Below the pieces are notes generated by a model. That model saw only the letters and a program-made list of their open reading frames with translations. It was not told the DNA's origin and searched no databases. A DNA stretch of 63,057 nucleotides, filler included, from Folioceros fuciformis (taxonomy: Eukaryota), in the NCBI GenBank assembly GCA_049999805.1. It is 7 parts of 7 records of this genome, joined end to end, with 100 filler letters (N's around TTAATTAATTAA, not from the genome) between each part and the next. Parts side by side here need not be neighbours in the genome. Positions count along the whole stretch, not along the records: positions 28,853 to 39,228 come from JBNGIO010002927.1; 6 more parts are not named here. The stretch is one strand, 5' to 3'. Positions 12,190-57,500 of the stretch are shown one piece after another. How positions within the stretch are numbered: the stretch's first letter is position 1; every line of letters starts with the position of its first letter. A program made the translations under genes and the position numbers.

Positions 12190-12289
12190 NNNNNNNNNNN
12201 NNNNNNNNNNNNNNNNNNNNNNNNNNNNNNNNNTTAATTAATTAANNNNNNNNNNNNNNNNNNNNNNNNNNNNNNNNNNNNNNNNNNNN
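12190..12289. other. Artificial scaffold gap linker (N-run + TTAATTAATTAA + N-run); identical linkers at 21673-21772, 28753-28852, 39229-39328, 43111-43210, 61018-61117
   Basis: Six identical 100-nt spacers carrying stop codons in all frames. Confidence 0.98.
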
Positions 12290-12957: not shown

Positions 12958-13113
12958 GATGGCTTGTAGGGTTTGAGAAGCAAGGGTAGATTGAGCAAAA
13001 CGTGCTGACCATGAAGCCTAGGCTGCTGCAGCTACTTGAGCTAATTGTGCTAATTGTGCATTTAAAATAGACTTATTAGTTGGACGAAAAGTGGAATTAG
13101 TTTGAGATGACTC

Positions 13114-16100
13114 TATTAGATTTGGTAGAGCGGAGCTTGAGAAAATCACATATTCAGCAAAAAAATGATAATAAAAGGTTTTTGTTCTTAAACACTAAAA
13201 AGGGTTAAGTGGCTATTCATTTGTGTCTATTCATATTAGGGCTCACTCAGTTATATATGTATATTATACCTAGCATATTGGTAAACCCTAGCGACGTGGT
13301 TAAATAGACCAGATGGGGTCTTAACACACCCCCTTAACCACGACACTATGAACTACGACAACGCCAGAAATGATAAGTGCAGCAGTCCACTTTACGTTGA
13401 CGAGCTGTGCGCTAGCCATTGCCATATTCCTCCTCATCAAACATGTGCAGAAGGAGCTGCACAGGCTGGGGCGCTAAGCAGAAGCATAAGGACAAGCGCA
13501 TACAAACTGGAGAAGACATGAAGCAAAGAAACTAGTCGCTCTAGCAGGATGGAATATCAAGCTCGCTCTGTCAGCGACTGTAAATCCTGCAACCGGATCG
13601 GCAACTGCAACGAAGGCACAATGTAGAAGGGCCGAGGTGGCAGCGAGACTGGCAGCAGCAGCGAGAATCCCATTACCAGAGTAGCAACAAGATGCACGAT
13701 TGGATATGGTGAGAGAGCTTCATCCACGGGTACCTGTTGCTCAGAACTGTAGACTAAGGCTAGCCAGTTGGTGGAAAAAGGACAAGGTGGTCTGCAACTC
13801 CCATTTCTTCAAGAAAGAAATTGTGCTTAGCCTTAGGAAGGGCCTTGGTGAGCAGATCAGCTAGATTAAGATCGGTAGGTATATATTCAATCTTCACAAT
13901 CTTCCTCTCAACTGAATGTCGCACAAAGTGGTGCTGAATTTCGATATGTTTCGTGCGGGCATGGAAACGAGGGTTTCCAACCAACGCAATGGTAGATTGA
14001 TTGTCACCAAATACTTTGGTTGGCTTGGCCTGTGGGAACTGTAGATCGGCAAGGAAACTGCGTGCCCACTCTGCCTCCTTGGCTGAATCCGTCAAAGCCT
14101 TGTATTCGGCCTCGGTGGAGGAGAGAGCCACGGACATCTGCTTCTTCGTACTCCAAGTTACCACAGCTCCTAATAGTGTGAAGCAATAAGCTGATAAGCT
14201 ACGACGAGTTTCAGGATCAGAGGCCCAGTCTGCATCAGCAAATCCTTGAAGAACATACTCTGAATCAAGAGATGCCCCACGATAACAAAGTCCATAGGTG
14301 GAGGTTCCTTTCAAATAGCGCAGAATGCGTTTAACAGCACCCCAGTGGTCTTTGCCAGGTTTCTCGAGGAACTGTGAAACGCAACTTATGGCATGCTGGA
14401 TATCTGGACGAGTCCAGCAGGCAATATAATTCAGGCAACCGCATGGCGGTAGGGTACATCTGCCATTTCCTGAAGCTCATCATCAGTTTGCGGAGATTGC
14501 TCAGAGGTGAGCCTAGCACCAACAACTCCTGGTGTGCTGACGGGTTTAGCCTGGTCAAGATGAAAACGCTTGAGAGTTTCATTTACATATTTTGTCTGGT
14601 GTAGAAGAGTCTTGTTGATGCAATCCCTGTGCAGCTGTACTCCAAGTACAAAGGTGAGGGCACCAATGTCTTTCATCTCATACTGTTTATGAAGCATTTG
14701 TTTAATCCAATCCATAAGCTCACGACTGTCTGATGCTAAAATGGCATCATCCGTTGCCTCCTTATATGATCTTGGTTCTGCAGGATGCTCAATGGAAGAA
14801 GAGAAAACAGCCGGCAATTTCATTGCCAGTCTAGAAGATCTAGTATTCCTGAAATCTATTGCTTCATATGGTCGCTCATGCCACTGATCTCTGGGATGTC
14901 TTGTCCTGCTAGGGTACCTAGGTTCAGCAAGAGCAAGTGTATCCTGAACATGTATCTCAGATTCAATGTGAGCAAGAGTTTCCTGTTCATCCTCGGAAGA
15001 GGCAGCAGCATCCAATGTATTGTCCAAGTCATTAGTGACAGGAAACGACTCCATCATGTCAATGTCTAATTCCTCAGAGTGTGCTGCTAGAGGTTCTATC
15101 AAACTTTGATCATCTTCCAACACAGCTGAACCTGCAGGTTGAGCTGATGTCGAGTCATACTGAACAGGCGCCTGTAGTGGAGATTCAGGCTGCGGAATAA
15201 CAGATGGCAACTCACCCCCTGAACCACGAGCAGCCACACCCCCTGAAGGTGGAACCGGATACACATCTTGGGGATATTCCGAAACAGCAGCATCAAAGTC
15301 GTCGTCAGGAAGCACAGGATGTGCAGTAACATCAGCAAAGTGAGAAGCAGCTGGCTGAGTAAGTTCCTTAAATGTGACACTACGAGCAAAGACACATGAC
15401 CGGGTGGGGGGGGGTCATATAACTTGTATGCCTTGCTTTCTTCGCCATAACCGACAAAGATAAGGGGCCGGGCACGAGCGTCTAACTTCTTACGTTGCTC
15501 TGCAGGGACATAAGCATATGCAGGGGAACCGAATACTCGAAGATGCAGTATACTAGGTCGACGCTGCCATATTACTTCAAAAGGGGTACGCCCTGACACA
15601 GAACTGGTAAGAAGACGATTAAGAATGTAAGTGGCAGTGACAATTGCCTCTGCCCAATAGGCTTTGTGCAAGCCAGACCATTGAAGCATACTGCGAGTCA
15701 TGCCTAAGAAAGTTTGATTCCGTCGTTCAACGACACCGTTCTGCTGTTGTGTGTAGGGAACAGCAAGCTGGCGCAAAATGCCATGGTCAGCAAGATATTC
15801 ATCGAAGGCTGAATTTACAAACTCCGAACCATTATCAAACCGTAAGCAGCGAAGAAGTCGACCCGTCTGTCGTTGAATCATGGGAAGCCATTCTTGAAAC
15901 ACTAAAAACGGATCTGATTTCTTCTGAATAGGGTATGTCCAGCAATACTTGCTATAGTCGTCAGTTAAGGTAAGATAGTATTTGGAGCCGCCCAAAGAAG
16001 GAACTTGTATCTTGCCAGATATATCTGTGTGCACAAGATCGAGAACATGAGTAGTCCTGTAGGCAACAACAGATGGAAAAGGTAACTCCTTTTGTTTGGC

Positions 16101-19100
16101 CAGGATACAAGAATCGCAAAGGGGAAGTTCCTTAAAACACTTGGGCAACGGTTCCCTGTAACATTCCATGCTGGACATTTTTAGAAGTTTGTTCTTGTTT
16201 GCATGTCCCAAGCGAGCATGCCAAAGTTGGGCTAATGCAGACTGTGTGTTGGCAGCCACAAAAGCACTGTGTGCTGGTTGACAGCAGATGTCCAGCTTGT
16301 AGAGATCATCTACCAAAATCCCTCGAGCAAGTGAAGCACCTTGGGCAGCGCCTTTGTATGTAAGAGTACAACCAGAGGCTGAGAAACAGAGATCAAACTG
16401 TCGAAGCTTCATAAGCTGGCTGACAGACAGGAGATGCTTAGCCATGGTAGGTACATATAGAACATGGTCAAGCTGAAGAGCAGTGCCGTCCTTTAGTCGA
16501 AAGGCACAAGAACCTTTGCCAAGAATCTGCAAGCCTGTGCGAAAAAGTTCATCTCCCAGCAGAACCTTCTCGTTTGTTCGTGTGGGAGAGAAATTAGTAA
16601 GCAAGTTCTTATTGTGGCAGATATGGGAGGTCGCACCTGAATCCAAGTACCAAGAGTCGGGTTCGCAGACAGAAGCATGGTGACATACGGTCATAATTAC
16701 AGGCCGCTTGCTGGAAGAAGAGGCCAGAGAGGACCTATCCTTGGAAACCGAATGCGTCTCAACCACCTTCTGGGTCTTCTCGGCCTTTTTCGGTTCTCCA
16801 CGTTTCTTCTTCTTACATTCGCGCTCCCAGTGTCCTTGGATGCCACACCAATTACATGAGCCAGTACGCTTGCCTAGAGCTGGTTTGGTAACACCGGCAC
16901 CAGAGGAGTTTCTAGCCTTCCCTTGAGGCTTGGTTTTGTTCATGTAAAGAACCTTATCAGTTTTTGTTTTTCCAGGAGAATGGTGGCCTCGACTCTGCTC
17001 TTCTTGGAGTAAGGCTCCAACCACCTCTGTAAAGGAAATCTGAGGAGCCAGTCCCAAGGCTGCAGCGTGCTGGGCAGCATTTAGGATAGCACCGTAGCTA
17101 GAAACAAAAGACTGATAACTAGGTGGCAGACTACTTAGTAGTTGTGCAACAACATTAACATCGTCAAGTTGTGTGCCCAATGAGATCAGCTGGGATCGCA
17201 AGAGCCTGAACTTGGCAATAAAGGTACTAACTTTCTCACCTTCATTCATACTCAGGGAGAACAGCTCAGTACGTACATGGCACAAGGTATGAATGTTCCT
17301 GACATCATGTCTGTGCCAGTTGCTTCCAGATATCCTCAGCTTTCAAGAGATAGGCAACATCTGGAACAAGCACTTCATCCAACCCGCTGATGAGAAGGGC
17401 TCGAGCGACACTGTTAGCGTTAGCCCAACTATCCTTTTCATACTGTGTGGCGTTGGGTAGAGGCTCAGGGTACTGTCCTGTCACAACCAACCAAATGTGC
17501 CTGGCTTCAAGTGCAGCTCGCATGCGAACACTCCATACAGGATATTTTGTTCCGTTAAACCTGTCACGTTCTTTGAACTCAATGGTGTAGGCAGGCTGAT
17601 AAACGTGCGGTTGTGCAACATGTGAGCCAGGACCAGGAGGGGTGGGTTGTACAGGAGGTACTGGGGGAACGGGAGGTAGAGGTGGTGGAGGGTTAAGAGG
17701 TGGTACAGAGGGAAATGTCGGTGGAGGTGGTGCGGGCGGGAGTTGTGCATACCCACCGAGACCACTTAGACCGCCATAATTTCCACTCAAACCTGTGTAC
17801 CAATTGGGAACTCCGAAACCTCCCGATGCAGCGTAAAGACCTGCCAAAGGATTTGGAAACAGGCCACCACTACCGGCAGGAGGAGTTGTAAAGGGTCCTC
17901 CTGATGCCATCGCGCCCGGCAGATGCTGGGCGATGCCAGCAGGCATAGTAGAGACATCTCCTGTTGCAGCAGCTCTGCCAGGAACGGTGGCTCCACCTAT
18001 ATTGCCTGTGGCAAATCGTTTAGGCGTAGAAGTGCCTTGCGTTTGTGTGGCAACGCCAGCAGAATCAGTTGCAGAACCGGTTGCTGGAGAATTGCTATGG
18101 CTCGTGCTAGGTGCAGAGCTGCCACTACCACCCGCGTGCGTTGCGGTGGAGGCCAAGCCTACTGCATCTTCGGAGTCATCCTCATCGCCAGAGCCAAACC
18201 GGATCCCGCCAGTACTCATTGCAAAAGGAGTCGCGAAGTCGAGCGGTAGACCTTCGAATGAAAGTCACAAGCCGCGAGACTTCACGGTTACAGGTAAGAG
18301 CCGGTTGAGTTCCGCGCCTGTATGCCGCTTGGAATAGCAGATGTCTTCCACGCTGTAAGGTGAAGAAGAGACGTATTGATCAAGTGCGTCCCCTCGTATC
18401 TGACATTCCTTGAGGTCGCTTCTGGAGAATGATGCGAGATCGCACACCCTGTCGAGGCGCCTCAGAGAGGTGAAGATCTTCCGTGAGATTTTCGAACCAT
18501 CTTCTGATTCATGACCGCCTCGAAGAATGCTTGATTCGCGGCTGACTCCAAACCAGCAACCGATTGTGAAGCACTCAGATTGTTCCCGGGCAGAAACCCA
18601 TCTAGCAGAGACTTGAACATCACACATCTGTTGATCAGGTCGCGCACTTGAATCTGCAAGTTGCTGATGTCACAAAGTCGCAAAAAGCTTCCCTGATGAG
18701 ATGCAGGTTTGTGAGTGTAGGTACAGGGCCGCGCACCCAGACGAGTCCTGTAATGAAGAAATCTCCTAGCTTGCGAGGATTTATAACGGGTAAGATGCTG
18801 ATCACAATCAATCGCTTGTCGGAAATTTTGCGGGCAATCTAAGACTATTTTCTGTCGAGGTTTAATAGCTCTTGAAATTGCGTAGAGGTTCTGTTCCCAC
18901 GATACGTGACCATCGGGTCTAGGAAACAAGATTCTGTTGTCGAAATTACGACGACGCATTTTTGCCTAATTTCCTTTCTCCGCTCATTTCAGAAAATTGC
19001 AGCGAAAGAATGTAATCTAGGCTATACATTACAATATAGATATAGGAGGAAAAAAAATTGTTGACGCAAGATCCAGAAGCCACAAAAGTTGTGACAAGTG

Positions 19101-19424
19101 GATGTTGCAGTCCTGATTTTCTTTTCTTCCTACATATATATGTATCTGTAGACTAAAATTTCTACAAAAATAAAATTAATCAAGTATCTAAGCATGAAAG
19201 CTCTGATACCATGTTAAATTTGGTAGAGCGGAGCTTGAGAGAATCACATATTCAGCAAAAAAATGATAATAAAAGGTTTTTGTTCTTAAACACTAAAAAG
19301 GGTTAAGTGGCTATTCATTTGTGTCTATTCATATTAGGGCTAACTCAACTATATATGTATATTATACCTAGCATATTGGTAAACCCTAGCGACGTGGTTA
19401 AATAGACCAAATGGGGTCTTAACA
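13114..19424 (-). mobile_element. Ty1/Copia element 1: both LTRs present, internal RT deletion
   Basis: 213-bp LTRs at 13114-13326 and 19212-19424 (~7 differences by eye). TSD GACTC/GACTT; PBS-iMet TGGTATCAGAGC 19200-19211; PPT next to 13327. gag 18219-17305; gag-PR-INT 17285-~15400 (CNWCGIQGHWEREC, WYLDSGATSH, LWHARLGH, FDNGSEF); RNase H 14314-13760. Confidence 0.96.
18462..18959 (-). CDS. Hypothetical 165-aa ORF in the 5' leader of Copia element 1 (upstream of gag)
   Basis: ATG-initiated, stop-free, sense to the element, between PBS and gag ATG. Only weak local resemblance (QVRDLINR) to the leader ORF of element 2. Confidence 0.35.
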   Translation of the reverse strand: MRRRNFDNRILFPRPDGHVSWEQNLYAISRAIKPRQKIVLDCPQNFRQAIDCDQHLTRYKSSQARRFLHYRTRLGARPCTYTHKPASHQGSFLRLCDISNLQIQVRDLINRCVMFKSLLDGFLPGNNLSASQSVAGLESAANQAFFEAVMNQKMVRKSHGRSSPL

Positions 19425-19615
19425 GACTTAGAAGGGGCTTCGTGCTCAAGTTGTGATGCAGGATCAAGTGCAGACACAGGATCTTCAAGAGGTGTGACAG
19501 CAGGGTTTCGATTTTCCAAAGGATTGAACCAGCGCAGAGGCCAATGCGTCCCTCTGCCGTGGCCACGGGGATGAGGGTTTCTTCCTCCCCGTCCGCTGTT
19601 TGACATCAGCTGCAC

Positions 19616-20221
19616 CTAGCATGCCTTCCTAGCCCAAGGATTGTCTGATCTTGGGTCAGGAGATTTCTCCATGGCTGTATGTAGTGCGGCGACGCCGTGC
19701 GCAAGCGCCTCCACTTGTCTCGTGAGAGCCACAATGCTAAGGTTCAAAGTGGTCTGCCTGTCGGTGAAGTCCGCAATCCTTGCTTGTGTTTTGCAATTTT
19801 GTGCGTTTATGAGGTCGCAAACTTGTGGAAGGGTCTAATCGCTGGTTGCGCAGGAGGAATTGCTAGCATTTGTGCACTAGCTGCAGGTTGCTAACCGACT
19901 CTTTGTGAGTGCGCAGGATCTAGCGACCGAGATGCGCTGTGCCTGGCTGATGATCTCACTAACTTGCCTTCTAAGGTGCCTCAGAGGGTCAGGTTTGATT
20001 GCTGGCTGCGCAGCAGCATACTTGGTGTTTTGGCCGTGATTGGGAACAAGTTTGATTGATGGCTGCGCCTGCCTAGCGCTCTGGCCGTGGATGCAAATAG
20101 GTGCTACGACCTTGGAGAAGAAGCGATTGAGGTTTCTACTCTATTCTTCTACAGTCTGACTAGGTTACCCAGCAAATGGATCAGCAAGTGGGTTCGACTT
20201 CCTTCCTCTACCTCTCAGCAT
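19616..20221 (-). pseudogene. Copia leader extra ORF (decayed copy, 4 in-frame stops)
   Basis: Manual translation MLRGRGRKSNPLADPFAG*PSQTVEE*SRNLNRFF...DPLRHLRRQVSEIISQAQRIS...IADFTDRQTTLNLSIVALTRQVEAL is colinear with ORF 32216-32791. Confidence 0.8.
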
Positions 20222-20929
20222 GATGCCTAGTGTGCGGAGTAGTGAAAACCGGCATCAGCCAAGAAATGTTCTGCCATGTCTCCAAATCTAACAAGCGCAA
20301 GTTTGTGGGCAGCAATGAGGCTGCGAAAATTCTCATGAGAGAGATTTCTGATGCAGTCTTTGGTGTGGCAAAATACGCAAGGATTAGGAGACGTGATAGG
20401 CTCCATGCTCTGATACCATGAAGCAGGCTAATCGGTAGGCATAGAGGAAAGAATGAAAAAAAGTTGAGATTGCCGTTACCAGGCTGCCCTTGAGGCAGAT
20501 GCGTGGAGATGTGACTGTTCACGTGAGTGAACACGTCACTTAGGGTTCGGTCACGATGGTATGAAACGGCATACCGTTTCATACCTTTAACGTTTTCACC
20601 TAATTTAATAAATAAAACTAAGGCTGGCTATTTAATATAAAATTGACTCCTAATTTTATATTTCTATATGCATGGCGCGTCGCGCGTTTTGTTCAGGCAA
20701 TGGGTGGATCACGGAGAGGGGGTTATGAACTAGCTCAAGTGTGTGGCTAGCAAAGGCTACGCTTGCTTTTGTGATTGTCATTACATGGTTCGCCTGCCGT
20801 TCAGAGATTGTGAATGAGTGGACGTGGTTTCCTTAGCCATTCCTGGCCGATCATTTCCAAATTCTGGCTAACCCATATTTCCTTCTTTTTGGCCTAACTT
20901 TCACTACATCTGGAGGTTACTTGGTTAGG

Positions 20930-21672: not shown

Positions 21673-21772
21673 NNNNNNNNNNNNNNNNNNNNNNNNNNNN
21701 NNNNNNNNNNNNNNNNTTAATTAATTAANNNNNNNNNNNNNNNNNNNNNNNNNNNNNNNNNNNNNNNNNNNN

Positions 21773-28752: not shown

Positions 28753-28898
28753 NNNNNNNNNNNNNNNNNNNNNNNNNNNNNNNNNNNNNNNNNNNNTTAA
28801 TTAATTAANNNNNNNNNNNNNNNNNNNNNNNNNNNNNNNNNNNNNNNNNNNNTTTTTCAACCAAAACAAACTACTACCCCAAACTTTGGAGGTTCACA

Positions 28899-31800
28899 AG
28901 TCCACATGTTCTTGGCGTAGTCCCTTTGTGCTGCTATTGCGAACAGTGTACGGACATAGGTGGCCCTGACTACAGACAAAAAGGTTTCTGTATAGTCCAG
29001 GCCTTCAACCTGGCTATACCCTCTTGCTACGAGACGAGCCTTGAAACGTGCTATGCTCCTATGAGCTGCAAGCTTTTTCTCAAATACCCACTTGCAGGTT
29101 ACTGGCTTTGTGCCATGAGGTAGGTCCACTAGTTCCCATGTACCGTTGTCCAGCAGTGACTGGTACCCTGAATCAATTGCCGCTGACCACTTTGACGCCT
29201 CAGGTCCACTGATAGCCTCTTTGTAGGATAGGGGCTCGACCAAGCTGTCAGGTGTGCTGTCATCCTGCACAAGGAATGAGTTGTAGGGGAGGGGTGGTGT
29301 TACCCACTCGTCGGGCGAAGCTGTGTGTCTCCTACTGCTTCGTCTTGGCAATTCAGCTTCTGGAGCTCATTCCTCCTCCGTCTCAGAGGCTTGTCCTTGT
29401 TTAGGTTCCATGACAGCTGCTTCCTCTTGGCTGCTAGTGTGGCTGCCTTCTGTATCCGCTTCATTCTCGTTGCTATCAGCAGTTCTAGCTTGGGTGTCAC
29501 CAGTGGTTTCCGCATCTTCGTCATCTAGGAACACGGTTGCAATCTGGTCGATAGTAGCTGCAGGCACGTGAGCAAAGTGGGTTGTGGTGCTGGTATGCTG
29601 GTATGTCTCCTCACTGCTTTCCCCTTCAGTGGTCCTACTTGTGGATGCTTCCTGTTCAGGTACCAGCTTCGAGAGCTCAGGAGGAGGTGTGAGGAGTGAC
29701 AGCTCGTCGAACACCACACTCCAGCAATGGGTGGTGCTTCTAGTGTTAGGATCCAGCAATTTATACCCTTAATACCTTCTGTGTAACCCACAAGTATGTA
29801 CTTGCGTGCCTTATAGTCGAGCTTGATCCTTCGGTCCTTGGACAAGTGTGTGTATGCTGGAGCACCGAAAATCCTCAGGTGATTTATTCGGGGCTTGTGG
29901 GTTGTCCAGCGCTCGTAAGGAGTTGCTCCTATGAACACGCTGGTAGGTCCCCTATTCCTGATGTATACAGCCGTACTAACTGCTTCTGCCCAGTACCCAC
30001 GTGAAAGACGTGCTTGCTGTAGCATTGCTTTTGCAGCTTCTTGTGTATGCCGGTTACTGATCTCTGCTATGGGGTTTTGTGCAGATGTGTACGGGGTGGT
30101 TAGCTGTATGGCTATGCTCTGTCCCTTGCAGAAGCTAGTAAAGGCATTCGAGGTATATTCGCCCCCGTTATCGCTCCTCAAGGTTTTCAACAGTTCACCT
30201 GTTTGCCTTTGTGCAAACGTCACAAATTCCATGAAGCATTCCAAGGTTTGGCTCTTCTGCTTGAGAGGGTACACCACAGTGTATCGGTTCCAATCATCTA
30301 TAAAAGACAAAAAGTATCTAGCTCTGCCAAGGGAGGTTGTGGACATGGGTCCACATAGGTCTGTATGTACCAGCTCCAGGAGCTTGGTAGCCCAAGTAGG
30401 GTTGCTATCTTGGTAGGGAGCACGATGGTATTTGCCGAACACACATGCCTCGCAGAAGGGCTTCTTAGCATGCTTCATCAGGAACTTCTCATGGTAAAGT
30501 GTGCTACTTTTAACCATTGTGTTTAGCTTGTCAAAGTTTGTGTGACCCAGCCGGCAATGCCACAGCTTCTTGTTGTGCCCGTGTCAGGTTTGCCATTGGT
30601 CTGCCAAGCTCATACTGGATGTCCAGTTTGTACCGGTTATGCACAGGAGTCCCTATTGCAACTATTTCACCTTTGTTTACCTAGTCAAGTACATGACATT
30701 GCCCGTTAGTGAACATAGTGCTCAGGTCGTGCTGCGTGTCTAGTAAGTAGACTTACACCAGGTTTTTGACCAGGGCTGGTACGTGCTGGACTTCGAGCAG
30801 GGTTTCAACCCTTCCACTTGTCGAAAGGACAGGGACCTTGCTGACTCCTACAACTGGCAGGCCACGATTGTCACCAAGTAGGACGACCTGACCCCTTGGG
30901 ACTTTTCTATACTCAGAGAATGCAGACAGAGTGTGGCAAATGTGCGACAACGCACCTGAGTCAAGGTAGCATGCATGCTTGTACTTTGGTGTAGAGACCA
31001 TGTAGACTGTTAGGACTGTGCCACACTTCCTCGACGTGATGTTGGCTTCAAGTGGGGCTGTACGGCGGGGCTCCCCTGCCTCCTTTTTCCTGCACTCTGC
31101 CTCCCAGTGTCCTAGAATGAGGCACCAGTTGCATGGGCCCTTTTTCTTGGTAGCAACTGCCGAAGGACGGCGTTTGAAGCTCCCACTGCCTCCAGCATTC
31201 TGATACTGTGAACCCCGACGTGGTGGCTGCCTCTTGGAACCTCTGTTAGTGTAGAGGACTCTGTTTGAGGACTCTCCTCTGGCGGAGGTACCACCTCTGC
31301 TAGCAATCCTCGTGGATTCTTCCTCCAGGAGGGCTCCGATGAGTCTGAAAGAGATACTGCAGGTGTTTGTCCTGCAGGTGTGGCCTGGGCCACGTTTCTC
31401 ATGTGTGTATAGTGATTGCTTACAAACACCCGGTAGCTGTCCGATAGGGAGAGAAGGAGGGCTACTGCAGCCTGCATCTCGATTGTTGCAGTCCCACAAG
31501 AGGTAAGCTTTGACCTTAGCATCCGGAACTTTATAACGTGTTGTTGCACTGACTCGTGCTCCTTCATCTTGCAGTTGTAGAACGCACGAGTAGCACTCAC
31601 CATGGAGGACCCGTTTGACACTTGGTAAATTTGATTCAAGGAGTTCCATACATCCTTGGTTGTGTCGGCATCTTGAGTATGATGCATCATAGACCCGTCC
31701 AAGGCTGATTGAATGATGCCCAATGCTCGAAGATCCATCTTTGCCCAAACATCAACATCACCTTGGACTGCTCATGGCGAAGGCTTGGGCACTGTGCCCG

Positions 31801-33252
31801 TCACAATGCCTCAGAGGTCATGCTCTCTTAGAATGGTTTGTACCCGTAAAGCCCATATGTCAAATCGGGTCCCATTAAATCTGTCTTTTTCTTTAAAGTT
31901 TATTTTCACGTTGTTGACCGTGGTTGTGTTGTTGGTGACAGTATGAGGTGGTGGTTGTGCCATGTTTCCTACAACTTGGTGTGCGAGTGCTGCTCCTGAT
32001 TGTGCAACTGCGTATGCCTAAGCTAGTTGTGCTACTGATACAGCATGCAAGCTTGTATTTGACTGGGAGGATGCAGCCTCCTGATTTAGACCAAGTGGAT
32101 CAACGGGAAATGGATTCAAGTCGGGGTTTACACCCCTTCCAATACCACAACCTCTACGACTGCCTCTTGGGTTTCTGATACCCCTACCATGATTACTATG
32201 GGACATGAGCCAGGTTTAGAGGGATGCCTGATCATGGGATGCACGAGACAAGGATTCTCGTTCCCATGACTCAAAACTTACTGGATGTGCCTGATTCATC
32301 TCCAGGTTTGGATAGGTCTGGTCAGGTTGCTTTGCAGGTTTGTGGGGTGCAGAGAGCCTATACAGCAACTCTATTTGACGTGTGAGGGTCACAATATGCC
32401 TCTGGGAATTGATGACCCTATCAGTCAGGTCACAAACCTGCTGACTATGTCTTTCTGACTCGGACCTTACAAGGTTGTAAATTTCCCGGAGGAATGGATC
32501 AGGATTGGGAGGATACGTGCTTGTGCAATTTTTGCAACAGGAAGTTTCACTCGCTCTCTGTGCGCTAATTGCTAGTGAGTGAGAAATTTCCTTGCGCATT
32601 TGCTTTCTTAGACTTGCTAAGGGATCTACCTGAACAGGTTTCAAAAACTGGTTGATGTACCTTCGTGATGCAGGCCTGGGACACATATTAAAGAAATGTT
32701 GGAGACTTTGATGTTGAGCCTCTACACTTAGACCAGGACTACAGGCAAACGGATCTACAGGTATTTTGCCTTTTCCACGTGCTCTCGGCATCCCGCTTAT
32801 CTATGAATAGTAGGGAAAGATAATATCTGCAAGAATCTTGTCAGCCATGTCTCCAGTCCTAACCGGCACTAATCGCATTGTAGAGATTACCATGCGGAAG
32901 TGCTCATGCGACAATCTTTTAATGCAGTCTACACTCTTGCAGGTTGTGCAATGCTTAGGTGGGGACATTGGCAAATCCATGCTCTGATACCATGGAAAAT
33001 TATAGACTAGTATCGAGAGAACAAGATTGCAGAAAAGAAAGAATTAAATTGTGCGCGGCCGGGATCAGCCTTAAGGCAAGAAGTGGGTGCATCGGTTCAC
33101 GGTGTCGTGAACGACGGTTAGTTAGGTCACAACTCTATAAAACGCCGAAGCGTTTCATATCTCGGCGTTTCACACCTAATGAATGAATGAATTAATTAAT
33201 TAATTAAGGCTGGCTACTTAAAATGCTAATTACTACGTATTCGCATTTTCCA
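28899..33252 (-). mobile_element. Ty1/Copia element 3 (5' LTR, PBS, leader ORF, gag, PR, INT, start of RT), abutting the truncated Gypsy protease
   Basis: LTR 32993-33252 with TGGAAAAT/ATTTTCCA termini; PBS 32981-32992. gag FKEKDRFNG..W and CNWCLILGHWEAEC; YLDSGA; RSDNGGEY; RT CKWVF..FKARLVARGYSQ. Cut at 28898 by another TG-starting repeat. Confidence 0.93.
32216..32791 (-). CDS. Copia leader extra ORF (191 aa, unknown function, helical/coiled-coil C-terminal half)
   Basis: Intact ATG-to-stop ORF between PBS and gag. Protein-level homolog at 19616-20221 in element 2. Confidence 0.75.
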   Translation of the reverse strand: MPRARGKGKIPVDPFACSPGLSVEAQHQSLQHFFNMCPRPASRRYINQFLKPVQVDPLASLRKQMRKEISHSLAISAQRASETSCCKNCTSTYPPNPDPFLREIYNLVRSESERHSQQVCDLTDRVINSQRHIVTLTRQIELLYRLSAPHKPAKQPDQTYPNLEMNQAHPVSFESWERESLSRASHDQASL

Positions 33253-33768
33253 TAAGAAGAAGAGATAGCGATTGATATGAAATGTTTGATTGTCAAATCT
33301 GGAAATTTTGATGTTATTTTAGGGACAAAGGCTTTATTCATGCATGGAGGAGGAGTGGACTTATGGACAGAGGAGTTTTACTATCGTCCAGGGTGGCGAC
33401 AAGGTGAGGGAATGAGAGTAGCAACAATTCCACTTAAGTTGCAATTACAGGATGACATGCAAGATGCGTGTGTAGTAAACATGACGACTTCTTGGGATGA
33501 GCAGGAGAAAGAAGATGAAGATGATAAGTTGTGGGTGGAGCGTCATATGGATAAGTTATGTTTAAAGGAATATAGTCATAACAGAGTGGAGGAGATCGCA
33601 ATGAGAGAAAATGTTAGTAGAGCATTAGCTGAAATTTTTAGAGAGCTTGAAAAACGACAGACTGAGTTTCAGCTAGATGATAAAATTCAGCTTTGTACAA
33701 AGAAAGCAGTTTGTAAACTTGAACCTGTGTGTAATAAACTTCTGACATTGAGTTCGTCTGAGTATGGA

Positions 33769-34705
33769 TTGGTTGTGGTTGAGTTGTTTGCTGGGATTGC
33801 ATCTGGTCTGGAGGCTGTGTTGGCTGCTGGGTATGTGGTCAGACGTTACATTTATTGTGATCCAGATGAAGTTTGTCAGGCAATTGCGAAGGCAAGGGTG
33901 TTTAAATTATGCAAAAAGTATCTTGAGCAATTAAAGGTTGAAGCTGTGAAGCAAGCGTTTTCTGTTTGGCTACAAGATGTTAGGCTTATAGGATTGGTAC
34001 AATTTCAAATGGAGGAAGAAGTTGATATGATAATAGCTGTCTGGGAATGTTAAGGGCATTCAATGGCAGGCAAGGGAAAAGGCTTGTTGGATTATAGGTC
34101 GGTGTTATTTTATGAGCTAATTAGGATTTTGAATTTGGTGCAAAACCATCAGAAGAAAGAATGTGGCTTTGTGATTGACAATGTGGATTCGCAAATGGAT
34201 AGAAGAGTAGCGTTGAGGTGAGATTTTGAGGAGATCAAGTATTATTTAGGTGAACCTATAAAGTTGGATGCAGTGTAGTTTGGATCTAGGGCTCATAGGC
34301 ATCGTTGTTTTTGGAATAACATGATGCCTAGGCATTTGTTGCAGATGCTTGTGAGTCAGTGGCAAAGGGATGATGATTAGATAGTCGATTAGATATTAGA
34401 TGAGGGGCGAGTGAGTAGGCAGGTGACTTCTGATGATAGACGGCCTTTTTATTGTGTAAATAAAAAGGGGGAGCTCAAGAGGGCGTTACCAACATTTGTA
34501 AGTTTTGAGGTGCCAATGCATTTAAAGGGGAAGGGCCTGGGATGATATTTGATATGAAGAGGAAGGTGTGGGATGTGCCATGGAGAGAGAGAGGACGATG
34601 GGTTTTGGCACAAATGCTACTCAAGTGGAAGGCATAATATTTAAGTAGAGGAATAAAAAACTTGGACAAGCTATGGATTTGAATACAATCAGATGGCTTA
34701 TGATG
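33769..34705 (+). pseudogene. DNMT3-like C5 cytosine DNA methyltransferase domain inside the Gypsy pol
   Basis: Motif I VVELFAGIASG; II YIYCDPD; III QDVR; IV DMIIAVWEC*GHSMAG; GLLDYRSVLFYELIRIL; VI FVIDNV; VIII PIKLDAV*FGSRAHRHRCFWNN; IX ERERTMGF; X LGQAMDLNTIRWL. Canonical order, in frame with the protease; stops and frameshifts present. Confidence 0.9.
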
Positions 34706-37700
34706 TCTATAAAAGTTTATTAGGAGTGGAAGAGAAAGTGGAAAGTTATTTTAAGCACAAGGTTAGAAGGACGTAGTCTAAGTAAAGTAAGAAGAGATGA
34801 AGGTCTAGACACTGGGGGGGAGACTAAGAGAATGAGAGAGCATGATGAGGTTTTAGGTGATGAGTGCAAGCAAAGCAAGCAAATGAGATATGGGGCAAAG
34901 GTGGTAGATGCGGAAAGAAAAGTTGGGAATGCGGCTAGCTCAGGCTGTGGGATTAACGTCTATGAGAAACAGGAGTGTATGGATTTTCAGTGGGATATTT
35001 TTGATGAGATAACCTTGGAGGATAGGGAGGATTTTGTAAGGATTTTGGAAAGTAGCAGGCAGGTATTTGCTTTTTCCAATAAGGAATTAGGCAAGCACAA
35101 GACATTTAAGTTTAAGATTCGGCTTAAAACTTCTGAACCGGTTTTTAGAAGGCCATATCGTTTGAGTAAATTGGAGAATGAGATTGTGGACAAGAAATGT
35201 CAAGAGCTGCTTGAGGCTGGATTGATAAGATCTTTGGAAATCAAAGTATGCAACAGCTACGGTGCTCCCACCAAAGAAGGATGTGCATGGTAATTGGACA
35301 GAAAAGAGGATGTGTGGTGACTATAGACCGCTTAATGAGGTGACGCCTATGGATAGATATCCAATGCCGACTCCTGAGGAGATTTTTGATGCAATTGGTG
35401 AATGTAACATATTTTCAACATTGGATTTGAGGGGTGGCTTTAATCAAATTGAAATTGAGGAGGAGGATAAAAAGACTACTTTTTGGGGTAATAGATGTTT
35501 GTGGGAATGGGTAGTTATCCCATTTGGATTGAAGAATGCTCCTAGTGCTTTTCAGGGAGCAATGGATCAAGCATTGAGAGGTTTGTCATTCACCAAATGT
35601 TACATAGATGATGTAATAATCTTTAGTAGTAGTGTGGAAGAACATAAGAAGCATGTTAGGCGAGTGTTGGATAAACTGAAAGAGGTTGGTTTGACGTGTC
35701 ACCCACAAAAGTGCAGGTTTGGGTCCTCTAAGATAGCATATTTGGGACATTTTATAGTGCCTAGGGGTACAACACTATCTGATGTTAAAGTTGAAACGAT
35801 AGCAAAAATGATACCACCTTCGGATGTGGGAACTTTGCGTTATTTTTTAGGATTGGTGAATTATTATCGCAATTTTGTGGCAAACCACAGTGTGGAGGTA
35901 AAACCAATGACAATGTTGTTAAAGAAAGATGCAGTGTGGGTTTGGAGAGAAGATCAGCAGAGAGCATTTAAGGAGATAAGGACATTTTGATGAGCAAGAC
36001 CTTGTTCATAAGACCTCATTTTGACAGAAAGTTTAAGTTATATATAGATTGGAGCAAACTTGGTTTGGGATCAGTGCTGGTGCAAGATGATGAGAGTGGG
36101 GTAGAACATGTGGTAGCATATGCAAGCAGGAGTAACAATTCTGCAGAGAGCAATTATTCCTTATATCATGGGGAATGTTTGGCGGCAGTGTGGGCAGTAT
36201 CACACTTTAGACCTTGTTTGTATGGGGCTCAATTTGAGTTGGTGACAGATCATCAGCCTTTGAAGTGGTTGATGAAGAGTGAAAAGTTGACAGGAAAGTG
36301 AGCAAGGTGGGCACTTATTTTGCAAGAGTATAATTTTTCTATTGAGCATAGGACAGGAGTGAAACACACAAATGCAGATGTGTTGTCAAGAAATCCATTG
36401 GGAACTTCAGAAGACTTAACAGTTGCTAAGCAGGATTTTGATAAGAATGTTGGGGTTGACTGCAATCTGGTGGTGTCCAGATGGACACCTAGCGCATATT
36501 TGGTGAATTTGGTGGAGTTGGGAGTTTCTTCGGTGCCAGTAGATGTGTGGGAGGATAAGAATACATTAGAGAGGGTGATGATAGGTGGTAATCAGGAATC
36601 GCTAACGGTGAAGGAGAATGATAGGGTGACAAAGCGTAGTAGGAGATATGTATGGGTTGACAATAAGTTGTTGTTTAAGGATAACATGAGTGTGGTACCA
36701 AGACTTGAAGAAAAAAAGGGTTTGGCAAGAAAGATTCAGGTGGAGTTAGGACATTTTGGTACAAAAAGAACATTGAGTTTGCTCATGAATAGTTATTATT
36801 AGAAGGGAATGATGGATGTAGTTGAGAAGGTAGTGTCTACTTGTGAGGTTTGTGATAGGGTGAAGGCAAGTTTCTCAGGCAAAACTTCTCAACTTCATCT
36901 GCTGCCTATTAGGGGGATGTTTTATAGGTGGCGTTTGGATTTGGCTGGAGAGTTATCAGTCACATGTAGAGGTTTTAAATATGTGTTGGTGATGATAGAA
37001 CATTTTTCTAAATGGATAGTTTTGGTGCCTTTGAGAGAGAAGAAGTCACATGATATTAAGGAATCATTTCTCAATCATGTGTTGAGTGTTTTTAGGGCTT
37101 GTGCAGAAGTTCTAATAGATCAAGGCACTGAATTTATGGGAGAATTTGATCAATTTTTAAATGAGTACTTTATTGATCATAGGGTAACTTCAAGGAATCA
37201 CCCGGAGGCTGATGGTTTAGCAAAGAGAATGGTACAGACATGTAAGAGTGCTTTGAGGAAATATTGTCTGGACAAGAGTGAGTGGGATAGGATGTTACTA
37301 TTTAATGCAATGGGTTGTAGGATGAGTAGGCAAGCATCGCTGGGAAAGTTTTCACCGTACATGTTGTTTGGGCGTAGACTACAGTTATCTGGTATGTTAG
37401 AAGACAAGGTGAATGCTATAGTGAATTTGGACGATCCTAATAAGTGATTAAAGATAGTCACGTACAGAGCAGAGTTGTTTAAAAAAAGCAATGCCTATGG
37501 CAATGGATAATTTGTTAATAGCTCAATATAGGGATGAGCTAAGATACAGGAAAACAAGGAGTGGACATTTCAGGCCTAAGGTGAAAAAGTTTGAAGTTGG
37601 AGATTATGTATATTTGCAGAGGAAGACGATGACGACAATTGATACAAGTGCGAGTAGGATAATATTGAGGGTGAGAAGTGTGAAGTTGAATGGAATTCTA

Positions 37701-37823
37701 GAGTTGGAGGGAAAGGATGGCACAACTTGTCTGGAACACATGAAAAATTGTGCACCATGTCATTTACCTCACTTGAATCCGATAATTGATGTGCAAGCTT
37801 TTGTGCCAAGGAAGGGGTTCGCT

Positions 37824-37958
37824 TGTATAGGTTGTGGAGATTCTGGAGGTGATCATTGCATGTTGTTGTGTGATAGATGCAATGATGGGTGGCATACTTT
37901 TTGTTTAGAGCCCCCGCTAGAAGTAGTGCCAGATGGGCAATGGTTTGTCCAATGTGTG
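37824..37958 (+). other. PHD finger at the integrase C-terminus
   Basis: CIGC..LLCDRC..WHTFC..PPL..VP.G.WF. Restoring one T at ~37946 gives WFCPMC and completes C4HC3. Confidence 0.88.
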
Positions 37959-38083
37959 TAGTAGTTGATACATTGTGAAGGGCAGTATGTTCAATGTGTA
38001 TGTATGTTGATGAAAAGTTTGTTAATCTGGCTTACCAACGAGAGATGGTCAGCAGGTTAAGGGAGGGAGTGAAGGTGTCACAG

Positions 38084-38373
38084 CGAGGGAGAAGGAGTAG
38101 AGGACAAATATTCTTTTCGTCAATCTTGTGTGTAGTAAACCACCAAAGAGTGGCAGGATGACCAGTAGCCTTGGTGTGCACGATGGAGAGGAAGCATACA
38201 AGGGGAGGCATTGAAGAATTATGAGTGTGATCACTAAACTCACATCGAGGGAGAAGGAGTAGAGGACAACTATTCCTTTCGTCGATCTCGTGTGTAGTAA
38301 ACCACCAAAGAGTGGCAGGATGACCAGTAGCCTTGGTGTGCATGACGGAGAGGAAGCATCCAAGGGGAGGCAT
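38084..38373 (+). repeat. Two ~128-bp direct repeats (period 162) in the putative Gypsy 3' LTR
   Basis: CGAGGGAGAAGGAGTAGAGG...GGGGAGGCAT at 38084 and 38246. Confidence 0.9.
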
Positions 38374-38538
38374 CCAAGTGCACTGTTAACAAGAATATGC
38401 GCGTATATCATACAGGGGTTGGCCACCCCATATACATATGTATGCATGCTATATATATATATAATATATATGAGTGTTCAGAGACGTTTAGGGTTAAGTT
38501 CAGATGTTGAGGAGCAAGACCTCTTGAAGCACGACAAT

Positions 38539-39085
38539 TGTTCCCCCTGGTGGCTGAGCTTGTCTCCATGGGAGGAATATGAGCAGTGGGAGAAGATAGG
38601 GAAGAGGTGAGAAGAAGTGTGATCAACAGTTGAAACTAGGCCTAAAATTGGCAACTTATTCAACAGAATTAGTTTCCAGCCGAAACGGTTCCTAGGCCGT
38701 AGAAAACTGATCCCGGGGTGTTGGGACAGTTCCCAGACTGTTAGGGAAGGAAACAGGTGAGAAAGAGCAAAGTCAGAATTTTTGAAATTAAATCCAGAAA
38801 AATTAAACCTTCCCCTATAGTTGTTCCCCCTGGTAGCTGAGCCTGTCTCCATGGGAGGAATATGTGCAGTGGGAGAAGATAGGGAAGAGGTGAGAAGAAG
38901 TGTGATCAGCAGTTGAAACTAGGTCTAAAATCGGCAACTTATTCAGCAGAATTAGTTTCCAGCCGAGATGGTTCCTTGGCCATAGAAAACTGATCCTGGG
39001 GTGTTGGGATAGTTCCTAGACTATTAGGGAAGGAAACAGGTGAGAAAGAGCAAAGTCAGAATTTCTGAAATTAAATCCAGAAAAA
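38539..39085 (+). repeat. Tandem duplication (period 282) of a module homologous to family-B repeats
   Basis: TTGTTCCCCCTGGT...AAATCCAGAAAA at 38539 and 38821; reverse-complement similarity to ~43350-43610 and ~21890-22150. Confidence 0.85.
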
Positions 39086-39328
39086 TAAGAGAGAAAAAAG
39101 AAAAGAAAGATTAGGGGGAAATTAGGGGAAAAGAATATATGGGAATACGGATACCATATACATAGTAATATGTATCAAATACATATAAAATATATTGGGG
39201 TGTACATATATGGACCGTATACATACCTNNNNNNNNNNNNNNNNNNNNNNNNNNNNNNNNNNNNNNNNNNNNTTAATTAATTAANNNNNNNNNNNNNNNN
39301 NNNNNNNNNNNNNNNNNNNNNNNNNNNN

Positions 39329-43110: not shown

Positions 43111-43210
43111 NNNNNNNNNNNNNNNNNNNNNNNNNNNNNNNNNNNNNNNNNNNNTTAATTAATTAANNNNNNNNNNNNNNNNNNNNNNNNNNNNNNNNNN
43201 NNNNNNNNNN

Positions 43211-54537: not shown

Positions 54538-57500
54538 TGTTAGAAATCAAGCTCTAACTGAATTGTTATTAAGAGCATACAACACTTAGGATAGTGTAGA
54601 TTATCCCATATTGAACTCGTAGTTATCTATCACCTAAGTGTTATCAGGATATATCAAGATACACTAGGATATTGCACCCTCGAGACTAAGGCTTACCTTA
54701 TCGAGGGTTGCCCCGCCTGAAGGCTATATATGTAGCATCCTGTGCACCATAAGTAAGGAATTGTGGAGTCCTTCTAGGCCTGTGGTGCTATTTCAACATG
54801 GAATCAGAGCCAGAGAGAGCGCCGGCGGCCATTGCAGCTATGGCGGGGGTTTGACTCAAGGCTATGGCCGTGAGCGTGAAGGTGGCTGGCAACGCAAGCC
54901 ATTGAGAGGCGCAGGAGGCGCAGCGGAGTAGGCAGCATAGGAAGCCGCAACAGGCGCTATAGGCGCAAGAGCGAGCGAGAGGCGCGAGAGTGTTGGTGCG
55001 TAAAGGAGCCTGAATTATGGCTAATGTGCAGGGATCAAACAATATCTCTCAGGTCGTGGGAGAGAAGTTGGATAACAAGAATTTTGCTTTGTGGAAGTTC
55101 AGGATGAAGAACTTCTTGGTAGGTAGAAGCTGTTAGGACCTCTGCACAGGTGATGAGAGTGAACCAGAGATGGATCGTACTCCATCACAGGAGCAAAAGA
55201 CTGCTCACAAGGATTGGACTGAGAGAGCATGTAAAGTGTTACACTGGCTCTCCTTAAGCATTTCAGATGCTATGGTCATACAGATCACGGGATGTGAGTC
55301 TCCGAAGGATGCATGGGACATACTCATGAGGAACTATGGAAATGTCACACATGCTAGGAAAATCCAGTTGAAGCAGCAGTTCAACAACTTGTCACGAGGT
55401 AGCAGATCCATACTTGTGTATACAACAGAGGTGAAGACCATAGCTGATCAGCTTGCTACAATCGGTGCAAGTGTGACGGAAGATGACATGGTTGCAGTTA
55501 CTCTGAACGGACTTGGCAAGGAGTACGAGTCCTTTGACACATCAATCTCTGTGAGAGTTGAGTTCCCAAGTTGGGATGAATTGGTTGCTTTGTTGCTACA
55601 TGAGGAAGTTAAGCTTGGTATGAACACAGGTTCAGGTATATCTCAAGGGAGAGACACTGTTTTGTTTTCTAACCAGCGTGGGAGAGGCCACAGAGGTCAT
55701 GGTTCATTCCGAGGACGGGGTGATGCTTGGAACAAACAGAATCAGCAAGACAATTGGCATGGAGGAAATGCGCAAGGCTAGAGAGAATCTGGAAGTTTTA
55801 GAGGCGCAGGTAGAGCCACAAGAGGAAGAGATGGTTCTTTTCAATCTCATGACAATTCCAATAGAGACAAGGAGTGTTACTACTGTGGTAAGGTTGGTCA
55901 TTAGGGTTTAGGGTTTTAGGGTACTGCTAAGGACTGCTATAAGCAGCAAGCAGACATGAGAGGAAAAGGAAGGCAGCATGGGAACTATGCCTCCTCTAGT
56001 AATGCTAGAAATGACCAGGATAGGTTGTTCGCCATGCAACATCTCTCTGAACAGGATGGGCAGAATGATGAGAGATGGTACATTGATTCAGGAGCATCAA
56101 ACCACATGACTCCGCATGGCGAGTGGTTTAACAAGATGGATGCAGGTCCCCATGGTCATGTGTGTACAGGAGATGCCACACAACATGACATAAAGCATAG
56201 AGGAATTGTTCCTCTTAGGATGCCGAATGGTCAGTAGAAGAGTCTGCAAGATGTGTTGCATGTTCCAACCATTACGAAGAACCTGTTGTCTGTTGGACAG
56301 ATGGCTGAACAAAATCTGCAAGTTTGATTCGGTAAAGATGGATGCTTTATTGAAGAATATGACAGAGGGCACAAACTGATTGCTAAAGGTAGTAGGTATG
56401 GACAGATGTTCACTCTGGATGCATCCATTCCAGAGCTAAATGCAGCAATGTTTGCAAATGATGCAGGTGCCATACGTGATGTTGAAATATGGCATAAGAG
56501 GATTGGGCATGTGAACATAGAGAAGCTGAAATCTATGCAACAGAAAAGCGTGGTGGAAGGATTGCCCAAGTTCAAGTATGTTGATCTTGGTCATGTGTGT
56601 TCTGCATGTCAATTTGGAAAATAGTCAAGGTTTCCATTTGTGCGACACGTGCAGAACAGCTCGAGACCTTTGCAATTGATACACTTTGATGTATGGGGTC
56701 CTTCACAGAATGCATCGTTTGGAGGAGCCCACTACTATGTCTCCTTCATTGATGATTTCAGCAGGTACACGTGGCTGTACATACTGAAGCATAAGAAAGA
56801 AGTGTTCGAGTCTTTCAAGGACTTCAAAAAGCATGCTGAAACTGAATTCAACTGCTCCATCTCTTGTCTAAGATCAGATGGAAGGGGAGAATATGTCTCA
56901 AATGAGTTTGACGGGTATCTTGCAGATCATGGTATACGAAGACAGCTGACTTGCAGATACACACCACAGCAGAATGGTGTTGCAGAGAGGAAGAACAGGG
57001 TAGTCATGGAAACAGCAAGGGCAATGCTGAATGAGAAGTACTTACCTAATGATTATTTGGCAGAAGCAGTGATGACAGCAGTGTATGTACTGAATCGAAC
57101 TCCTACGGCAGGAATTCATGATGCTTGAGAGACTGTATGGCTATAAGCCGGATATTAGGCACTTGAAAGTGTTTGGGTGCATTGCATAGGTGCATGTACC
57201 TGATGAGAAGCGTAGGAAGCTGGATCCTAAAGCAGTGAAGAGTGTTTTTCTGGGGTATGCACGAAATAGGAAGGCATATAAGTGTTATGTGTCATCCACA
57301 CATGAGATCCTGATAAGCAGGGATGTGGTATTTGATGAGTTAGTCTCCTGGTATAGCAACTCAATTGCACTACCCTATGACGAACCCATATGGGAGAGTA
57401 CTGTTAAGAGTACTCCAGCAAAGAGTGAGGATGTGACCAATGGTGGATCACCAACGGTGAATCCATGGTCTGGACGACTGCAAAATGGTAAACCGAAGAC

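Follow-up and report, generated by a model that had tools for sequence, protein, structure and literature searches.

Three small conserved open reading frames between the primer binding site and gag of a Copia retrotransposon in Folioceros fuciformis

In this study we describe a Ty1/copia retrotransposon of Folioceros fuciformis (NCBI GenBank assembly GCA_049999805.1), here called element 3, in which the leader of about 1 kb that runs from the primer binding site (PBS) to the canonical gag start is protein-coding throughout. The element lies on the minus strand of a DNA stretch of 63,057 nucleotides (the window), which is made of seven parts of seven records of this genome joined end to end with filler between them, and the part that contains it, positions 28,853 to 39,228, comes from JBNGIO010002927.1. 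After the PBS, the leader is composed of three open reading frames (ORFs) in the order ORF A, 9 nt, ORF B, 9 nt, ORF C and 54 nt, followed by the gag ATG at 31963. An extra sense ORF between the long terminal repeat (LTR) on the 5′ side and gag has been kept in two diverged lineages, with conservation that is specific to one reading frame. We read the leader as polycistronic, selected for its coding capacity and probably expressed by termination-reinitiation, and we consider the chances of this reading to be about even. We regard three small conserved ORFs between a Copia PBS and gag as a variant of the LTR retrotransposons with extra ORFs, in an arrangement that we have not found described.

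The initial annotation of the window reported a single intact ORF of 191 residues between the PBS and gag of element 3. This ORF, our ORF B, is read directly at 32216..32791 on the minus strand, where 191 codons run from the ATG at 32791, 9 nt past the TAG of ORF A, to a TAA at 32218-32216. The idea of a conserved extra coding region in a Copia element holds, but the region comprises three consecutive ORFs (59, 191 and 62 codons) instead of one. The start of ORF B had been placed about 190 nt past the PBS, and the distances are indeed 189 nt in element 3 and 185 nt in a homologous fragment (2a, described below), but this interval is not a mere spacer, as it contains ORF A (32801..32980, minus strand), a conserved ORF of 59 codons closed by TAG in both copies, the ATG of which (32980) directly follows the last base of the PBS. 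Similarly, the ORF B stop precedes, by 9 nt and in frame in both copies, an ATG that opens MS..GRG.RNP; that ATG had been called the gag start, but it opens only ORF C (32018..32206, minus strand), 62 codons with an RG-rich start (MSHSNHGRGIRNPRGSRRG), which is closed by a TAG at 32020-32018 ahead of the gag domain. ORF C, the homologue of which in 2a starts at 19606, opens with MSHSNHGRGIRNP... at ATG 32206, 9 nt past the TAA of ORF B, and contains 8 Gly and 6 Lys or Arg among its 62 residues.

All three ORFs of element 3 are in the gag frame, and a single frame extends from the base after the PBS; at the junction between ORF C and gag, the ATG 54 nt past the stop is the next one in frame. 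There are 15 ATGs between the PBS and the gag ATG at 31963. The start contexts (positions −3/+4) are A/G for ORF A, G/C for ORF B, C/T, which is weak, for ORF C, and A/G for gag. A GTAAGT donor-like site occurs inside ORF B of element 3 and is absent from 2a. As a separate observation, the CA that ends the LTR and the TGG that begins the PBS together form an ATG at 32993 in element 3 and at 20419 in 2a (minus strand), which in both opens an out-of-frame mini-ORF of 11-12 codons (MVSEHG...) that extends across the PBS.

The length of ORF B is by itself weak proof of coding, as chance alone would give about one open run 191 codons long in the window (arithmetic from 4.35 % stops per codon), and it is the comparison with a second copy that is informative. 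When the leader of element 3 was searched against the window by tblastn, one homologous locus was found at 20400-19550 on the minus strand, in two pieces (E 1e-23), and there were no further leader homologues in the window, the remaining matches having E values of at least 0.9. This locus, 2a, begins with a 5′ LTR and PBS (20407..20630, minus strand; LTR about 212 bp, PBS at 20418-20407), of which the LTR is homologous to that of element 3 and the PBS is identical. Next come a homologue of ORF A (20227..20406, minus strand), with 59 codons plus TAG and 47-48 % identity to ORF A of element 3, and a homologue of ORF B (19616..20221, minus strand), the ATG of which lies 5 nt past the ORF A TAG, a spacer that puts the two in different frames. 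The latter is the decayed colinear homologue reported initially, and it has four internal TAA or TAG stops before its terminal TAG. The shared blocks named for the pair were found, with 56 of 191 residues identical, and the DNA is as divergent as had been claimed, since self-blastn at E 1e-10 gives no link between the two loci. The ORF C homologue starts 9 nt past the ORF B stop, in frame, and opens MSNSGRGGRNP; its first part (19425..19606, minus strand) is cut by a nested Copia element, 2b, on the far side of which it continues in the same frame at 12958..13108 (minus strand) to a TAG in an Ala/Gln-rich stretch. At about 12958, 2a is cut by a further repeat.

What had been treated as one "element 2" is a composite of the 2a fragment and of the nested 2b, which supplies the gag-pol at 13760-18264 that had been taken for its body. 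The 2b element (13114..19424, minus strand), which is outside the feature under study, interrupts 2a at 19425/19424 and has its own LTRs (13116-13329 and 19214-19427; 214 bp, 96.7 % identical), its own PBS at about 19212, and 5-bp flanks AAGTC and GAGTC. Its leader ORFs were considered as a third homologue of ORF B and rejected (z at most 1.1). The Gag of 2b has a Gly/Pro-rich N-terminal extension of about 235 residues, uninterrupted and starting MSTGG, and upstream of it are 134 further open codons in the same frame, closed by a TGA at 18267; this layout is superficially like that of element 3, yet it has no sequence similarity to ORF B.

The leader is conserved at the level of protein. In local alignments of element 3 with 2a, ORF B scores at z 22-24 and ORF A at z 26-27, values that were attained in 0 of 300 shuffles. 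In the frame tests, the in-frame z is 24.2 for ORF B (best other frame pair 3.6) and 27.1 for ORF A (best other frame pair 5.5), with the eight other sense frame pairs at 5.5 or below and antisense at 4.6 or below. The signal is high in one frame and low elsewhere, and therefore it is the protein that is conserved rather than the DNA. For ORF A, a nucleotide alignment with long ungapped blocks shows 39/57 identities at first codon positions, 41/56 at second and 28/57 at third positions; the corresponding alignment of ORF B is over-gapped (51 blocks) and is uninformative on codon positions. The Nei-Gojobori proportions of nonsynonymous and synonymous differences (pN/pS) are 0.34/0.65 for ORF A, 0.47/0.81 for ORF B (169 codons) and 0.37/0.92 for the first part of ORF C, and it is important to note that the alignments of B and C were protein-guided, which favours a low pN relative to pS.

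The conserved features of the individual products are limited to short motifs. ORF A keeps a pattern C-x2-C-x4-C-x5-H (C11, C14, C19 and H25), and its AlphaFold2 (AF2) model is of low confidence, with a mean predicted local distance difference test score (pLDDT) of 56.0. In ORF B the motifs M.R.RG....P..DPFA, DPL..LR.Q and D.TDR......IV.LTRQ.E.L are conserved. A basic N-terminus and a coiled coil had been proposed for it, and both fit: 4 of the first 12 residues are Lys or Arg, and the AF2 model, which is helical and of low confidence overall (mean pLDDT 54.8), has one long helix at residues 99-147 as a block with pLDDT of about 75. A speculative and rather unlikely guess is that ORF B is an oligomerising protein that might bind nucleic acid or Gag and act in cis on the RNA that encodes it.

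Searches for relatives were negative. No Pfam family, including the plant mobile domain, matched any of the three ORFs at E of 0.1 or lower, and Pfam and HMMER searches showed no homology to the described extra-ORF proteins (Ogre ORF1/plant mobile domain, Athila ORF-1 and Transposase_28). A word-indexed protein search with ORF B, covering proteins of 105-335 residues, found no relative. An exhaustive HMMER search of 1.84 billion representatives with the 320-residue leader product, in which each stop was written as X, gave a single match (E 2.5e-5), in which six CCKEC..FKK.PDKF repeats are aligned with residues 146-166, and which was rejected as repeat-inflated. Among metagenome loci, 112 pattern matches yielded 0 confirmed cases; in the ESM Atlas, the best score for ORF B was 0.77 and that for ORF A was 0.91, in unnamed clusters with 107 of 256 features shared; and Rfam had no match on 31700-33300. 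The possibility that the leader ORFs are diverged gag duplicates was also considered and rejected (z at most 1.4 against three gag sequences). ORFs A-C would be lineage-specific accessory proteins, presumably made as separate products of the full-length RNA.

The stops that separate the ORFs are shared between the two lineages. For ORF A the match is exact, with the stop at codon 60 in each, and it is exact also for ORF B, whose stop in each is 9 nt before a conserved LM(S). For ORF C the match is probable: locally, GCT TAG GCA is aligned with GCC TAG GCT, and the residues that come next are similar. By contrast, the ORF B homologue of 2a has its four internal stops opposite sense codons of element 3 (for S, Q, C and P), and the two TGAs in the gag domain of element 3 are sense codons in all contigs of the sequencing runs: the one at 31811 in 6 of 6 contigs of sequencing run X1 and 5 of 5 of run X2, and the one at 31774 in 6 of 6, 6 of 6 and 2 of 2. 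Hence the stops common to both lineages all mark ORF boundaries, and those present in one lineage only are all private decay. The stop plus 9-nt spacer that had been proposed as conserved is found at the B/C junction in both lineages, but at A/B the spacer is 9 nt in element 3 and 5 nt in 2a. At all six boundary stops the next base is a purine, which favours termination rather than leaky reading.

The sequencing-run contigs add copies of the family. In run X1, 186 contigs match it (46 at 99 % or more, 32 at 95-99 %, 60 at 90-95 % and 48 below 90 %), and the family is multi-copy. One contig of 151 nt is identical to 32193-32343 and spans the TAA, the 9 nt and the ATG of the B/C junction; the letters private to the copy in the window are absent from the runs that yielded this contig, which suggests that other copies would share the B/C junction. 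Among 24 of 495 pieces listed, 6 of the 7 that span the A/B junction and 3 of the 4 that span the B/C junction are free of gaps there, at 80-100 % identity. X1 and X2 are from one sample, which is also the source of X3. In X3, C>T and G>A make up 94 of 159 difference places, an excess that X1 and X2 do not show; since it looks like a property of the library, differences found in X3 only were ignored. A run that was guessed to be RNA had no contigs matching the element.

Element 3 belongs to a multi-copy Ty1/copia family, of which it is a truncated and mildly decayed copy. Its 5′ LTR (32993..33216, minus strand; about 224 bp, the outer boundary being approximate) ends in CA beside the PBS and can be aligned with what precedes the PBS in 2a, with shared blocks from TAGCCAGCCTTA to the PBS; self-blastn found no second copy of this LTR in the window. 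The PBS, TGGTATCAGAGC (32981..32992, minus strand), is an identical 12-mer in 2a and 2b and directly adjoins ...CA in all three. We take it to be complementary to the 3′ end of the initiator tRNA-Met; the window contains no tRNA gene for comparison. Most Copia elements have tRNA-Met PBSs (PMC6317226; here and below, statements from cited papers refer to the parts of them that were covered). The canonical gag (31115..31963, minus strand) is assigned through the domain PF14223 (E 2.9e-19, on 31115-31738), with its FKEKDRFNGT motif aligned to the 2b DUF4219 region. The ATG at 31963 is about 20 codons ahead of this domain, and the gag of another Copia element in the window, at 54538-59587, starts at an equivalent place. 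Farther on are a decayed protease, an integrase and the start of the reverse transcriptase (RT) (28853..31114, minus strand), recognised by tblastn with the 2b pol, by a Pol_BBD domain and by translation; 31627-29765 matches the 2b pol colinearly over protease and integrase. The RT/RNase H part is lost at an N run and a repeat at 28853, so the order of pol beyond the integrase is not visible in this copy, which is broken by the two private TGAs (31813-31811 and 31774-31772), by frameshifts, by the cut at 28853 and by the lack of a 3′ LTR. Element 3 and 2a each have a 5′ LTR only, without an LTR pair or target-site duplication, and because both are truncated copies this is no argument against Copia membership.

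Some other observations were made in the neighbourhood. The 5′ LTR of element 3 abuts, at about 33216, a Gypsy-like element (33259-37961, plus strand). In this element, a domain of the C-5 cytosine DNA methyltransferase type (PF00145, E 1.8e-6), the catalytic-motif region of which is broken by a TAA, lies upstream of RVT_1, RNase H and integrase, and a PHD finger is found at the C-terminal end. The same pattern, two runs of 44 N separated by 12 nt, occurs six times, at 12190-12289, 21673-21772, 28753-28852, 39229-39328, 43111-43210 and 61018-61117, bordering or lying within repeated sequence where examined (e.g., near 12290, 21773 and 43225), and these N runs conceal the 3′ break of element 3.

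How the leader might be translated can be considered from its layout. Ribosomes would start at the strong first ATG, that of ORF A, and after termination would begin again at the ATG next to the stop; a possible restart codon is in fact near the stop at both A/B and B/C (9 nt from it at each in element 3, and 5 nt at A/B and 9 nt at B/C in 2a). With 15 ATGs ahead of it, gag could hardly be reached by leaky scanning, and Gag would therefore probably need a further route, that is, continued reinitiation, shunting, an internal entry site or a shorter RNA. The common frame would be a relic of a once continuous N-terminal extension of Gag that was later split into cistrons by point mutations, and such an extension, as 2b still shows, may most simply account for it by analogy. 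The strongest form of the proposal, in which a Copia genomic RNA expresses three accessory proteins before Gag by serial termination-reinitiation from an ATG that abuts the PBS, is put forward only tentatively.

Several observations weigh against a polycistronic leader translated in this way. Reinitiation past a 191-codon ORF normally requires a special signal, and none was identified at the junctions. Near the B/C junction each lineage has a modestly stable RNA fold (z −2.35 and −2.12), a hairpin whose end is 7-12 nt ahead of the ORF B stop, but the positions are not homologous; the folds at A/B and C/gag are at background (z 0.05 to 0.82). Serial restart would leave Gag, which is needed in bulk, with the lowest yield. 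That three ORFs share the gag frame has a chance of about 1 in 27 for free frames, and it fits readthrough or a single ORF at least equally well. For the third stop, one global alignment offsets the two ORF C TAGs by 6 codons, and the stop lies within an Ala/Gln-rich stretch where Gln would fit. The readable copies are two, both broken; no difference fell on a boundary stop codon among the 40 of 386 differing places listed, which is weak evidence; and in one diverged contig the sequence immediately upstream of the ORF B stop is altered in length by a net one base. Finally, most decay in the old copies of the window takes the form of C>T and G>A changes, which create TAG. The Copia element at 54538-59587 (plus strand), with 263-bp LTRs that are 98 % identical, already has six TAGs and one TGA in frame in gag-protease-integrase, where its relatives carry Trp or Gln, and this points to a strong decay of this kind among the repeats of this genome. 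Parallel nonsense at shared CAG codons is therefore less unlikely than random mutation would make it, and the explanation by one long Gag stays alive.

Two explanations keep the leader and gag as one coding unit. Programmed readthrough, by which leaky TAG and TAA codons would give a small amount of extended Gag (A-B-C-Gag or B-C-Gag), has analogues in the extended glyco-Gag of murine leukaemia virus and in the in-frame gag/pol stop of Tca2, which is a Copia element. It would account for the frames, since the downstream ORF is in the same frame at 3 of 3 junctions in element 3 and at 2 of 3 in 2a, where ORF B, ORF C and the stretch after C share one, as well as for the spacer of exactly 9 nt at B/C in both lineages and the modest extra RNA stability near that stop; there is also the precedent that the in-frame UGA of Tca2 is bypassed by a non-canonical route (PMC2194720). 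But a purine stands at +4 of all six stops, none of them is in a known leaky context (CAR-YYA or CUA), no stable fold is present at A/B and C/gag, three serial events would leave vanishing yields, and the ATGs conserved after the A/B and B/C stops would not be needed. Moreover, ORFs A and B of 2a are out of frame and therefore cannot be fused by readthrough there. The purine after the stops, the 15 ATGs, the 2a A/B frames and the adjacent ATGs at the first two junctions together favour termination and restart, and we regard readthrough as rather improbable. Slightly less probable still is a single Gag extension of about 340 residues from the PBS-side ATG, in which the stops would be independent nonsense at mutable CAG or CAA codons or in non-autonomous masters, and the ATGs internal Met codons. 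This would fit the single frame from PBS to gag in element 3, the weak ATG context of ORF C in both lineages, the TAG-biased decay of old copies, the one 2a-private TAG that faces Gln in element 3, and the uninterrupted extension of 2b, which likewise starts MS.GG. Three coincident hits in two lineages, however, have a chance of about 6e-6 under random placement (about 1e-3 for two), with a rough upper bound of about 1e-2 if only some 30 codons are at risk. The leader stops of element 3 are also not among the copy-private changes seen in the listed contig differences, although both TGAs are; the contig identical across the ORF B stop comes from runs without the window-private letters; and the 2a frameshift would have had to fall exactly within the 5-nt spacer.

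The two other explanations are less probable. If the leader ORFs were translational brakes on gag (upstream ORFs) or unused relics, with functionless peptides, the strong first ATG past the PBS and the 15 upstream ATGs would be expected to depress gag translation, and the lack of known domains in the searches and the low confidence of both structure models would not surprise; but brakes or relics would not retain frame-specific amino-acid similarity once synonymous sites were saturated, nor hold a 191-codon frame open in a copy with two nonsense codons elsewhere, and we consider this improbable. A host that reads TAA and TAG as an amino acid, so that leader and gag are one ORF, is very improbable. 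It is true that 10 of 10 leader stops other than the copy-private TGAs are TAA or TAG, and that one of them faces Gln. A variant nuclear code, however, would show TAA and TAG frequently within conserved coding sequence and TGA as the sole terminator, and this is not what the window shows: in-frame stops flanked by at least 60 open codons on both sides number 16 TGA, 16 TAG and 11 TAA, a TGA-only stop set lengthens ORFs no more than control stop sets do, a 747-codon pol ORF has zero TAA and zero TAG, and the TAGs of the young Copia face Trp as well as Gln in relatives.

If the polycistronic reading is true, Copia biology would gain a new set of genes, in a lineage with a leader that codes for three conserved small proteins along its whole length. 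Such a lineage would also offer a natural system for ribosome restart past long ORFs in this host, and it would mean that small 5′ ORFs are being overlooked by present retrotransposon annotation. If serial reinitiation is also true, the translation of ORF A would be physically tied to the binding site of the tRNA primer. If instead the stops are decay, the finding shrinks to a long N-terminal extension of Gag, which is of minor interest.

Among known systems, 5′ ORFs have been placed in the Gypsy elements Ogre and Retrosat2 (PMC7264820, PMC4093653), and the initial statement that such ORFs are typical of Ogre/Tat Gypsy elements, with Copia extras lying 3′ of pol, agrees with PMC6317226 and PMC4093653. 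As with Ogre ORF1 and ORF0 of the rice element Retrosat2, the leader of element 3 carries a lineage-specific sense coding region that is placed after the 5′ LTR and before gag and lacks relatives beyond the elements (PMC4093653, PMC6317226), but those are Gypsy elements with a single large ORF, whereas element 3 is a Copia with three small ORFs that abut the PBS, are in the gag frame and, in the two lineages, have spacers of 5-9 nt. Copia elements are described as structurally uniform, the lineage-defining extra ORF being the 3′ ORF of SIRE, in a large plant survey in which ORFs below 250 codons were not scored and which would therefore have missed ORFs of 59, 191 and 62 codons (PMC6317226). 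SIRE is like the present case in being a Copia lineage that is set apart by a fast-evolving extra ORF (PMC6317226), but its env-like ORF is 3′ of pol and those of element 3 are 5′ of gag. In the literature searched, no description was found of a Copia with such a coding leader, with 5′ ORFs or with reinitiation; the supplements of PMC6317226, with the extra-ORF groups of 582 Copia elements, were outside this search.

For the expression of the leader, two kinds of system are comparable. Murine leukaemia virus and Tca2 likewise have in-frame stops between consecutive coding parts of a retroelement (PMC2194720), but their stop is between gag and pol, whereas those of element 3 are upstream of gag, three in series, in contexts that favour termination, and the first two have a nearby ATG. 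The closer likeness is to the calicivirus TURBS (termination upstream ribosome binding site), the UAAUG of SART1, a non-LTR element, and the polycistronic pregenomic RNA of cauliflower mosaic virus (CaMV), in which consecutive ORFs have a restart codon at or near the stop (PMC5902531). The difference is that the spacers of element 3 and 2a are 5-9 nt without overlap, and that a TURBS-like signal, a downstream hairpin or a transactivator has not been demonstrated in them. Termination-reinitiation, the coupling models of which are summarised in PMC5902531, is not known in LTR retrotransposons as far as that source goes. If serial reinitiation is true, element 3 would bring to the LTR retrotransposons a strategy, undescribed for them in the literature covered, that is used by plant pararetroviruses, caliciviruses and non-LTR elements.

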